DNA from: a plasmid
Length of the DNA: 64,000 nt
Direction: 5' to 3' (one strand)
Assembly (NCBI RefSeq): GCF_057098645.1
Contig: NZ_JBXSPU010000003.1
Shown here: positions 9,001 through 12,000 of the stretch, piece after piece
How positions within the stretch are numbered: position 1 is the first letter of the stretch
Layout: the number at the start of each line of letters is the position of its first letter
Made by a program: the position numbers

Positions 9001-12000
9001 GGCATCAACATAAGGTTCTGCTGTACATTCACCAATAACCAGCAATTTCAACATCGTCATGATTGGGAATTCCCAGAGATGTACGTCGTAGAATCCGGCT
9101 TCTGTTGCGGTCATAGGCTGGTTAGTATTGCTCTTGCCGATGTCGAACTGTGATTTTTGCAGCATGGTTCCCTCTAAAAATGGGCTGCACCACGGACTTT
9201 TCACCACTTCAACAATTTTTACTGGTTGGAAAAAACTTAGCTGCCATCCGATTTCTGGTATCCCATTTTGATCCGTGCAATAGCAACCAGGGCGTGAGGG
9301 GGCGGCACCTTCAGGGGCTGCTCCAATTCCCATGATCCGCATCGGGAAGATACAACTCCAGCAGATGTTTTTGATTAGGCCCTGCCATACTCCCGCTGAC
9401 TGGCACATTGCTCCCGGGACACCGGTATCTGCGGCCATTGTCATTGCAGGCAGCGAGAGCGACAGCATGACAGCGATCAATATTTCCAAAAGTAACTTTT
9501 TTAGCTTCTTCACCGGCACGCTCACTATTTAGTAATGAATGTTGTCACGCTTTCCATATACGCAACCACTTTGTTAAAACACTCTCTCATCTGGTCCGGG
9601 TAAGTTAGCGTCAGCCAAGTGGCCAGCAGCGCCCCAAAAATAAATCCTATTTTCATATCAATTCTCCTCTGCCGCGATTTTTGTTCCAATACCACGTATT
9701 TCAGCTTCACTGAATTGCGTTATACGGAATTTCTCTTTTTCAGTGGAGATCAGCGCTGGCGTGTTTTTTATCTGGAAACGAGCAATAATTTGCTCATTAA
9801 CTTTGAACACCTTCCCATTGAATTTTTCGCGCAGATCATTCAAATGATCCCATCCATTTTCCTGTTTGATGCGCGTGAACATCGGCATCACCTGACCGCT
9901 GCCAAGACGCTGGCGATATTGCTTCTCTGCCCACTCAAGTTGCCCTGGGTTCATTGGGTCAAAAATTATCATTGTGAGGTTCTGCGGGAACCTGGCCAGT
10001 GGGTTAATGAGCTCGCCAGCAGAAGCAATGACGCGACCCTGCTTATCTTTAACGTCCTGAGTAACCCTGATTGTCGGGTCGATTAGCCATTCCTTGTGCT
10101 CTTGAGCGGGAGGCAGATTAACCATGTACTGGTTTTTCCAGGTATCAGCGACTGCTCTCTTCTTGGCGCCGTCCCAGTCGTATTTCTGTGCTCGCTCTTC
10201 GAGCTCTTTAATAATGCTCTTCTCTTCAACCGGATAGGTCGTACCAGCAATCGGGAAAAGATCTTGGTCGGGTTTTCTGGCCAGTTCGCGCTGGAAGAAA
10301 TCAACGTTGAAAGAGCCGACCATTTTTGCAAACCGGGATTGCTCACGGGAGATTATTGTCGGGACCTGCGTGATCTGGTACTGGTTAAATGCGTCCGGGT
10401 CAATCGTAATTAGTGGGGAGTCAAACTTCCCCTTCACCACCAGCTGGTTGATAGCTGCCTGAGTTTCAGGGAGGCGTGTAGTGCCTTTCTTCAGACCATT
10501 AAAAACCACTCTCGCCTTATGTTCTGACGCGGTACGGAGTAGATCTTCCAGGACGTAATCAGGCAAGCTAAATGACGCAAAGATAGTGATACCGTTTTCT
10601 GTCGAGAGCACCTCTTCCCGACTGCTGTCTATTTTACGCTCGAAGTCAGCGGCGGTGATTCCTGATGAACCAAACATCTTTTCGATATTCGAAGACTGAC
10701 TGCGCATAACTTCTGGTTTATTTTCGACGGATTTCAGTGCAGACTCGCTGAGCTGTGAATTTCCCTGAATCTCATCACGTCTGCGAATGATGTCGTTAAC
10801 TGCTTCCGAGTTATTACTCTGAGCGCGGATAGCCTGCGTATGGTCTATAACTGCCTGCACACTGTCAGCATTCATACCCGGGACATAACCGCGATTTGTT
10901 TGCTGACTGAGGTCCCCGTTTTTCTTCATAGCTTCGGCCTGGCGGATGTATTTCTTGGTATCAGGAGAATCCAGAGAACCAGACGGGAGCGGACCTTCTG
11001 ATGCGTGTGGTACCGGTATTTGGGCGCCCAGAACCTGAGCTTGCCTTGCAATGTCATCAGCAACCTGTTGATACTGGGGGCTAGCCACAGCGGTGGATAT
11101 TAAGGCGTAAAATGCCAGACAGGAGGCCAGAGGCTTAATAGTTGTTTTTAATTCAAAAGATCGCATATGTTTTCCCAATAACTGAAGTCAACTTAACCGG
11201 CCCCCAAAAACGTGAGTCCCATGAGTGGTCCGTTTGCCCAATTAAAAAGACCTCCCCTTCCGGAATAGTTAATTCTCTTTCAATGGTCTCGGCAGGTATG
11301 CCGTATTTCACAGAAATACGTCTGGCATTGGCTTTATAAAATTTGTTCCCATTATAAACACCATCCAATGTGACCCTCAGGCGATCTCCGCCGACTCCTG
11401 CCACAATTTTAATAACCTTCTCATTTTCACGTATAAAACGGACTGATTTTGGCATATGAAAAGCTATGATATTCCCTGACCTTACCGATTTATCCTTCAG
11501 ATCGATCATGTAAAAATCAGCAGGTAAACATCCATTTAATAGTCCATGACCAAACGTAAATCGATTAAAAAAAATCAACATAACCAGTATCAGGATTCCG
11601 AGATTTATTGGCACGTACCAATCAAAACTCAGTAAACCACGCTTCTTAGGTATGTATTCTCTCATAACCTACTTCTCTCAGAATCAGAAAGCAAAATGGA
11701 CTGTCTTTTACATTACCTTAAAACCTATTATCCATGTTTTGGTACTTCCTTATTTCAGCAAAGCCAGCTATTTCTGATTATTTACCGCCTTTTTTTCTTT
11801 CATTCCGTCTTTGATTTGTGATTGTCCTGGCCGCTGTCTTACTCATGTAAAGTAACTTTCCCGACGTTACCCCATCAAAAAGTGAAAAACAAAAAAGCCG
11901 GGACATTTCTGCCCCGGCTGTTATTTCATTAGCTTGCCTTACTGCGAGGTTTCAACTGAATCTACGGACTTTGACGCGCCCTCATCCGGACCATAAACGG

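Follow-up and report, generated by a model that had tools for sequence, protein, structure and literature searches.

Is the short interval between trhW and trhU in the transfer region of IncHI1 plasmids an untranslated spacer, or does it hold a gene? The question was raised by an earlier note on the DNA analysed here, a stretch of 64,000 nt from a plasmid (RefSeq assembly GCF_057098645.1, contig NZ_JBXSPU010000003.1; referred to below as the window), which pointed to a small gene, easily overlooked, between the genes that it called traW and traU, with a hydrophobic peptide as its product. The open reading frame (ORF) in question lies on the minus strand, comprises 43 codons and specifies the product MKIGFIFGALLATWLTLTYPDQMRECFNKVVAYMESVTTFITK. 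Comparison with related plasmids indicated that this small ORF very probably encodes a protein, since its sequence shows the pattern expected of purifying selection in several divergent lineages. For the locus as a whole, the best explanation, to which we give a little better than an even chance, is that a small inner-membrane protein was captured by the transfer operon, where it would form part of a translational chain from trhW through the peptide to trhU and would have an accessory role in transfer. The features needed to describe the junction are as follows.

9525..9656, minus strand: small coding sequence (CDS), 43 codons plus TAG; probable gene, from sequence, conservation in seven lineages, the ratio of nonsynonymous to synonymous differences (pN/pS) and a family found by profile search
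9664..9669, minus strand: putative Shine-Dalgarno (SD) site GAGGAG, within the final trhW codons, 7 nt 5' of the ATG
9658..11166, minus strand: trhW, TrbC/TraW-type pilus assembly gene; coordinates transferred from the Prokaryotic Genome Annotation Pipeline (PGAP), Pfam TrbC_Ftype E = 2e-18
8461..9513, minus strand: trhU, TraU family, with the conserved start GTG 9513-9511; PGAP, Pfam TraU E = 2e-82
9522..9524, minus strand: second in-frame stop TGA; from the junction comparison

Conservation of the small ORF in IncHI plasmids

The trhW stop codon TGA occupies 9660-9658 and the ATG of the small ORF 9656-9654, leaving a gap of 1 nt, as the earlier note had read it. The GAGGAG site was also found where it had been placed (9669-9664). 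The frame is closed by TAG at 9527-9525. In 0.5% of shuffles of the 148-nt spacer an ORF starting with ATG reached 43 codons or more, and the window contains seven ATG frames of 40 to 50 codons with an SD-like core, the small ORF possibly being counted among them. Because of these comparable frames the presence of the ORF alone proves little, and it is conservation that decides.

When the peptide was compared with 72,556 plasmids by tblastn, 1,401 records matched at a coverage of at least 80%. Peptide identity was at least 99% in 219 records (IncHI1 type), 80-90% in 62, and 60-80% in 1,118 (IncHI2 type, 74%). Four further divergent lineages were found by contig look-ups, one in Photorhabdus plasmids and three from metagenomic or read assemblies, all with the gene order rsp-trhF-trhW-[43/44 aa]-trhU-trhN. 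An intact ORF of 43 to 44 codons occupied the same slot in seven of seven IncHI lineages, down to about 50% nucleotide identity. In every one of them the ATG was located 1-2 nt past the trhW stop, a purine-rich SD sequence 6-9 nt 5' of the ATG, and the GTG of trhU 8-11 nt 3' of the ORF. The SD equivalents at the same place were GAGGAA, CAGGAG, GGGAGGGG and AAGGAG.

The small ORFs of IncHI1 and IncHI2 shared 75% nucleotide identity, with 6, 7 and 19 differences at codon positions 1, 2 and 3, a ratio of nonsynonymous to synonymous substitution rates (dN/dS) of 0.18, and an excess of synonymous changes (binomial p = 4e-4). In the small-ORF frame pN/pS ranged from 0.24 to 0.61 across every pairing of five of the lineages. 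The control shifted frames gave values of 0.6-2.9 and contained stops in every lineage, and the reverse frames were closed as well. Judged from the sequences, this substitution pattern shows purifying selection on the small protein. The claim that a likely real but easily overlooked gene is present at this site was thus supported, the frame, ATG, SD site and spacing being kept in all seven lineages.

When IncHI1 was compared with IncHI2, the proportion of synonymous differences was 0.55 in the small ORF, as against 0.86 in trhW and 0.88 in trhU. The lower value may reflect an additional constraint at the nucleotide level, or noise, as it is drawn from only about 28 synonymous sites.

The simplest alternative is that the frame is open by chance in an unexpressed intergenic spacer, which is how the literature on plasmid R27 treats the region. 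It agrees with the description of a 249-bp intergenic interval, with the lack of an ORF number in R27, with the fact that PGAP makes no call in IncHI1, and with the occurrence of other ORFs of similar size and SD-like core in the window. However, a chance frame would hardly stay open in seven lineages at about 50-75% nucleotide identity, with a bias towards third-position changes and with all other frames closed, and it would not have the 48 database homologues, some of them chromosomal, that are described below. Nor was a signal at the level of RNA or DNA found that could explain the conservation. No Rfam match was obtained at E <= 1, the fold energy was no better than that of shuffles (z = 0.38), and the coding strand of the spacer contained neither a sigma-70-like promoter nor a terminator. 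A chance frame is therefore considered extremely unlikely.

Two other readings of the locus were rejected. The mechanical ORF list shows, as the earlier note had remarked, only a longer frame (9525..9710) of 61 aa that begins with a GTG inside trhW. The N-terminal extension that starts from GTG 9710 differs between IncHI1 and IncHI2 (MKLKYVVLEQKSRQRRID versus MESEPQIFQRKNN), every member of the family starts at the methionine of M-K/R-x-G-F, and other extensions proposed by gene callers are likewise unconserved. A programmed frameshift that fuses TrhW with the peptide was rejected on the grounds that the offset varies, the gap being 1 nt in most lineages and 2 nt in Photorhabdus.

Gene order and junctions that lack the ORF

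Over positions 8400-11200 the window matched pHCM1 of Salmonella Typhi CT18 at 100% identity and R27 at 99.9%. These two IncHI1 plasmids encode a MOBH relaxase together with an MPF_F mating-pair system, and the window belongs to this pHCM1/R27 type of IncHI1 plasmid. Its minus strand carries here rsp (1436 aa, Ig-like), trhF (S26 peptidase), trhW (TrbC/TraW type), trhU (TraU family) and trhN (TraN family). The start of trhW is ambiguous, being TTG 11178 in the mechanical ORF list and 11166 according to PGAP. Either start overlaps the end of trhF (stop 11153), which makes another tightly coupled junction in the same operon.

At orthologous traW-traU junctions the frame was conserved in the seven lineages of the IncHI1/HI2 clade, but IncHI3/HI5, other MOBH elements and F were without it. 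In IncHI5 and IncHI3-type Klebsiella plasmids, whose TrhW and TrhU are about 51% and 81% identical to the proteins of the window, trhW and trhU overlap as ATGA. The same ATGA overlap of traW and traU, again with no ORF, was present in a Providencia plasmid, in pKOCBH-A and in an F-like plasmid (F). In a Proteus plasmid one gene directly adjoins the other, and in Shewanella ANA-3 a gap of 41 nt separates them. In F, traW carries a GAGGAG ahead of its ATGA junction with traU. It looks from these sequences as if the SD site that would now serve the small ORF once served traU.

Other MOBH elements carry unrelated genes at this position. An EAL-domain gene occupies the traW-traU slot in the IncC plasmid pECY53 (locus 2765-3436), and a csrA-like gene occupies it in a Rhodanobacter plasmid (locus 2716-2919). 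The junction, at which the two genes elsewhere overlap, has the look of a site where insertions recur. A neighbor-joining tree of TrhU placed the seven ORF-bearing lineages in one clade, sister to IncHI3/HI5. Since all outgroups are without the ORF, its history is most simply explained by a single gain.

A family with chromosomal relatives

A profile of the plasmid peptides was searched against 1.84 billion representative proteins and gave 18 matches at E <= 1e-3, and a second search with a broader profile gave 48 matches at E <= 0.01. E-values ranged from 1e-15 to 1e-27 for plasmid members and from 1e-4 to 1e-12 for distant members. The chromosomal homologues, all from Enterobacterales, are 47-80 aa long, compared with 43-44 aa for the plasmid forms. 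They were found in Enterobacter hormaechei, Enterobacter sp. JUb54, Klebsiella, Kluyvera, Dryocola, Lelliottia, Serratia rhizosphaerae and Providencia alcalifaciens. A strict degenerate DNA pattern applied to 100,044 species genomes detected five loci, all of which were true members, and the family is therefore rare.

The family motif is M-[KR]-x-G-F-x-x-G-x3-[AG]-x-W-L-[TS]-L-x-Y-P ... F-x-K, and the peptide of the window has all of its residues. Plasmid and chromosomal homologues have the core GFxxGxxxAxWL(T/S)LxYP in common, and all members open with M-[KR]-[LIA]-G-F. Among 27 members M1, F5, G8, L15, Y19 and P20 were invariant, and G4, W14, L17 and F27 nearly so. The chromosomal tails are acidic, contain proline and frequently carry M-(V/I)-(T/A)-P-(E/D) close to their end, a feature absent from the plasmid forms, which end at residue 43 or 44. 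The gene of the window belongs to this separate, shorter plasmid subgroup.

A scan of the peptide and nine homologues against Pfam and NCBIfam, Tra/Trb families included, gave no match near any curated cut-off, even at E <= 10. PHROGs yielded nothing better than E 0.025, PADLOC only weak matches for one chromosomal homologue (best E 0.006), and a sequence profile search of the PDB only noise (E >= 0.46). By these searches the family is uncharacterised and uncurated, with relatives on chromosomes.

The chromosomal genes are free-standing, each with its own SD site, and nucleotide similarity among them begins at the ATG and ends inside the CDS. They were located upstream of feoABC, beside chaperone-usher fimbrial operons, near invasin-like genes with insertion sequence (IS) elements, beside a porin gene with IS fragments, between hydrolase and dehydrogenase genes, and near bssR. 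Such contexts could suggest a membrane-active antagonistic peptide, similar to a type I toxin or to an exclusion or interference factor, that travels as cargo of the operon. The product is small and hydrophobic, and the chromosomal homologues are sporadic and stand alone, with about 270-520 nt of intergenic sequence upstream, often near IS elements and adhesin or fimbrial loci. However, no conservation of flanking nucleotides among the chromosomal loci hinted at an antisense RNA; the tails, instead of being basic, are acidic and rich in proline; the plasmid gene is constitutively chained to essential transfer genes; and the PADLOC and PHROGs results given above speak against it too. We regard an antagonistic peptide as very unlikely.

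Predicted structure and topology

The structure was predicted by AlphaFold2 with the family alignment (mean pLDDT, the predicted local distance difference test score, 80.7). Helices were predicted for residues 3-18 and 20-42, with a break at Tyr19-Pro20, and correspond to the following features.

9603..9650, minus strand: predicted hydrophobic helix, codons 3-18, with the conserved face G4, G8, A12, L15, Y19; AlphaFold2, hydropathy, conservation
9531..9599, minus strand: predicted amphipathic helix, codons 20-42, after the invariant Tyr19-Pro20 hinge; AlphaFold2, hydrophobic moment, conserved F27 and K29

The description of the product as a single hydrophobic helix was correct in part. A hydrophobic run does occupy residues 3-18, but it comprises only about 16 residues, is borderline, and is followed by the helix of residues 20-42, which has a hydrophobic moment of 0.42 (amphipathic). 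The Kyte-Doolittle maximum was 2.02 in a 15-residue window and 1.38 in a 19-residue window. On a helical wheel G4, G8, A12, L15, Y19 and F5 fell within about 100 degrees. Small-residue stripes of this kind mediate helix-helix packing in membranes. Since what plasmid and chromosomal members have in common is the helix face formed by G4, G8, A12, L15 and Y19, the peptide probably packs this helix on itself or on a membrane partner that is not specific to transfer.

Residue 2 is always K or R, and the net charge of the C-terminal part is 0 to +1 in the plasmid forms and -1 to -6 in the chromosomal ones. The positive-inside rule, applied to residue 2 and to the C-terminal charges, favours an orientation with the N-terminus in and the C-terminus out. 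The model that most likely applies is insertion of the small protein into the inner membrane, with a cytoplasmic N-terminus and a periplasmic C-terminus. A cleaved Sec signal peptide is unlikely. The hydrophobic run is followed by L-T-Y-P-D, which would put a proline at the site of cleavage, and it is in the N-terminal half that the protein is conserved, the C-terminal half being variable.

The predicted topology bears on the main rival to a captured accessory protein, namely a subunit or assembly factor dedicated to the H-type mating-pair formation (Mpf) system, which would anchor the periplasmic TrhW and TrhU (or TrhN) at the inner membrane, as small Tra/Trb proteins of F do. The gene is positioned exactly between trhW and trhU and is chained to both by its spacing in all seven lineages. 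The predicted periplasmic helix would share its compartment with TrhW and TrhU, whose N-termini both resemble signal peptides. The plasmid forms also end in a short conserved C-terminus of their own (..Y.ES..TFI..K), unlike the tails of the chromosomal members. On the other hand, IncHI3/HI5 and all other MPF_F systems examined lack the ORF, homologues with the same helix face are encoded in chromosomes with no type IV secretion system (T4SS) genes nearby, and neither Pfam nor NCBIfam assigned the peptide to a Tra/Trb family. A dedicated Mpf subunit is accordingly regarded as rather unlikely, although it is the most serious competitor.

Transcription, translation and the start of trhU

For R27, reverse transcription PCR demonstrated co-transcription across trhW-trhU, and the interval between the two genes was without promoter activity (PMC7366339). 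The small gene is transcribed within the long htdA-trhN (AN) transfer operon. Ribosomes would initiate at ATG 9656 by means of the GAGGAG in the last trhW codons, and some might re-initiate after the trhW stop, one nucleotide upstream. Translation of the small ORF would stop 8-11 nt short of the weak trhU GTG, and TrhU synthesis probably depends in part on ribosomes passed on from the small ORF.

Where the small ORF ends relative to trhU differs from the earlier note, which had its stop codon overlapping the traU start. The TAG shares its G only with GTG 9525, the start of the longest ORF, whereas the only start common to all seven lineages, which PGAP also uses, is GTG 9513-9511, which leaves a gap of 8-11 nt. 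In the window the distance to this GTG is 11 nt from the TAG and 8 nt from the second stop at 9524-9522, and the GTG has no strong SD site. The second stop is the true stop of the 44-codon relatives and is ancestral; in IncHI1 and its 92%-identical relatives a change of AAG to TAG has closed the frame one codon earlier. Because trhU starts with a GTG without a good ribosome-binding site, it is probably fed by ribosomes from the small ORF. Coupling of trhW, the peptide and trhU is inferred from the spacing of the reading frames.

The same junction suggests that the ORF might be merely a relay, which carries translation across the gap for re-initiation at the weak trhU GTG while the peptide itself is functionless. 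The position of the GTG, 8-11 nt past the stop in every lineage and lacking a strong SD site, agrees with this, as does the direct coupling of traU to traW by ATGA in relatives without the ORF. But the amino-acid sequence is under purifying selection, the same family occurs free-standing in chromosomes with its own SD sites, and a relay would not preserve the glycine/alanine face of the helix and the YP hinge. A pure relay was judged improbable.

The start of trhU is given inconsistently. The longest ORF begins at GTG 9525, PGAP uses GTG 9513, and the start in the R27 literature must be about 105 nt further in, because a 249-bp intergenic region is stated there. The comparison of the seven lineages supports GTG 9513. 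A block of the trhU sequence, AAAAAGTTACTTTTRGA (about 9483-9499, minus strand; approximately codons 4-9 of trhU), was invariant in the seven ORF-bearing lineages, synonymous sites included. Its core, AAGTTACTTTTG, was kept in IncHI3/HI5 too, and synonymous sites elsewhere in trhU were saturated. The block pairs weakly with AGUGA at the stop of the small ORF; this pairing had no covariation support. A hairpin at the trhU start was not indicated, as RNAalifold gave -1.7 kcal/mol and no covariation for the seven lineages.

Annotation of the small ORF

The earlier statement that the peptide is unannotated holds for some records only. RefSeq has no CDS at the small ORF in pHCM1 and R27. The complete E. 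coli genomes of RefSeq contained 114 matching records in 112 genomes, and among the matches listed the identical copies were unannotated in 58 of 58 cases. However, PGAP calls a 92%-identical variant a hypothetical protein, the exact protein is already public as a hypothetical or uncharacterised protein (UniRef A0A2X8SG11), and copies in related plasmids are annotated as WP_022652169.1 and WP_000765857.1. The IncHI2 copy is wrongly named TrhU in some UniRef records. The gene is thus overlooked in IncHI1 plasmids, yet it is not new to the databases.

In R27 the trhW-trhU interval has been called a 249-bp intergenic region (PMC7366339). The R27 numbering assigns R0005 to trhN and R0007 to trhW; trhU is unlisted and takes the number between them, which leaves none for the ORF (PMC7366339).

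Origin and function

Of the explanations weighed above, we favour a captured small inner-membrane protein. The gene would have been acquired once, in the ancestor of the IncHI1/HI2 clade, from a rare chromosomal small-protein family of the Enterobacterales, by an insertion that hit a traW-traU junction which elsewhere is directly coupled. The role of the peptide in transfer would be accessory and not essential.

Several observations weigh against this explanation. The conservation of the ORF is confined to the IncHI1/HI2 clade, and IncHI3/HI5 plasmids are typed as conjugative without it, so the peptide is dispensable for the core transfer machine. The peptide has evolved much faster than the proteins of the adjoining genes, being about 50% identical between IncHI1 and Photorhabdus, compared with 89% for TrhU. 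The run of about 16 hydrophobic residues is short for a membrane span, and the 19-residue hydropathy window is borderline. The chromosomal contexts share no partner and therefore give no pointer to function. Capture of the gene from a chromosome, rather than its escape from a plasmid to chromosomes, is deduced only from the greater diversity and length of the chromosomal forms. Finally, no paper was found that mentions the ORF, and no ribosome profiling, proteomics or fusion was found that shows its translation.

A more specific version of the captured-protein explanation is possible but doubtful, and is put forward only tentatively. The peptide may be the plasmid branch of an unrecognised enterobacterial family of small membrane proteins that tunes the assembly of the H-pilus or the envelope during mating and sets the amounts of TrhU and TrhN. 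If true, such a function would help to explain the break in expression between trhW and trhU in R27.

Comparison with known systems

Small single-span proteins of the enterobacterial inner membrane, such as AcrZ, MgrB, MgtS and CydX, bind larger membrane proteins. The peptide resembles them in its length of less than 50 aa, in its one predicted hydrophobic helix with one conserved face of small residues (G4, G8, A12), in having little sequence beyond the membrane part, and in belonging to a class that annotation often misses. Unlike them, it has no sequence kinship to curated families, is encoded inside a transfer operon and has a second, amphipathic helix.

With the small Tra/Trb proteins of F it has in common that it is a small, predicted membrane protein whose gene is interleaved with traW and traU. 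TrbI is encoded just upstream of traW in F, and trbI, traW and traU overlap in an F-like plasmid. Unlike TrbI, the peptide is encoded after traW and not before it, has 43 instead of 128 aa, shows no homology to TrbI and is confined to a single IncHI clade, and its chromosomal homologues have no T4SS nearby. As no family profile matches the peptide, it is a member neither of the single-span group nor of the Trb proteins.

The closest analogue in terms of the gene map is the set of unrelated accessory genes in the traW-traU slot of other MOBH elements. The EAL gene of IncC and the csrA-like gene of Rhodanobacter are inserted in the same slot with the same strand orientation, and each is closely packed against the gene on either side. 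However, they specify unrelated cytoplasmic regulators (67 and 223 aa), whereas the IncHI insert specifies a hydrophobic peptide of 43 aa. The arrangement also resembles termination-reinitiation cistrons, with a stop-start distance of 1-2 nt upstream and 8-11 nt downstream, an SD site in the preceding gene and a weak GTG. It differs from a pure coupling device in that the peptide sequence itself is conserved; the coupling would follow from the spacing.

IncHI1 and IncHI2 plasmids carry the multidrug resistance of typhoid and mcr-type colistin resistance. The practical consequence of the small gene will be modest until a phenotype is found. For the transfer region of R27, the finding means that the 249-bp interval mapped as non-coding is almost filled by a conserved gene, on which the supply of ribosomes to trhU probably depends. 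Mutations, insertions and reporter fusions in this "intergenic" region would be polar in ways that have not been considered. The gene would also serve as an entry to an uncharacterised family of membrane proteins in Enterobacter, Klebsiella, Serratia, Providencia and related genera.

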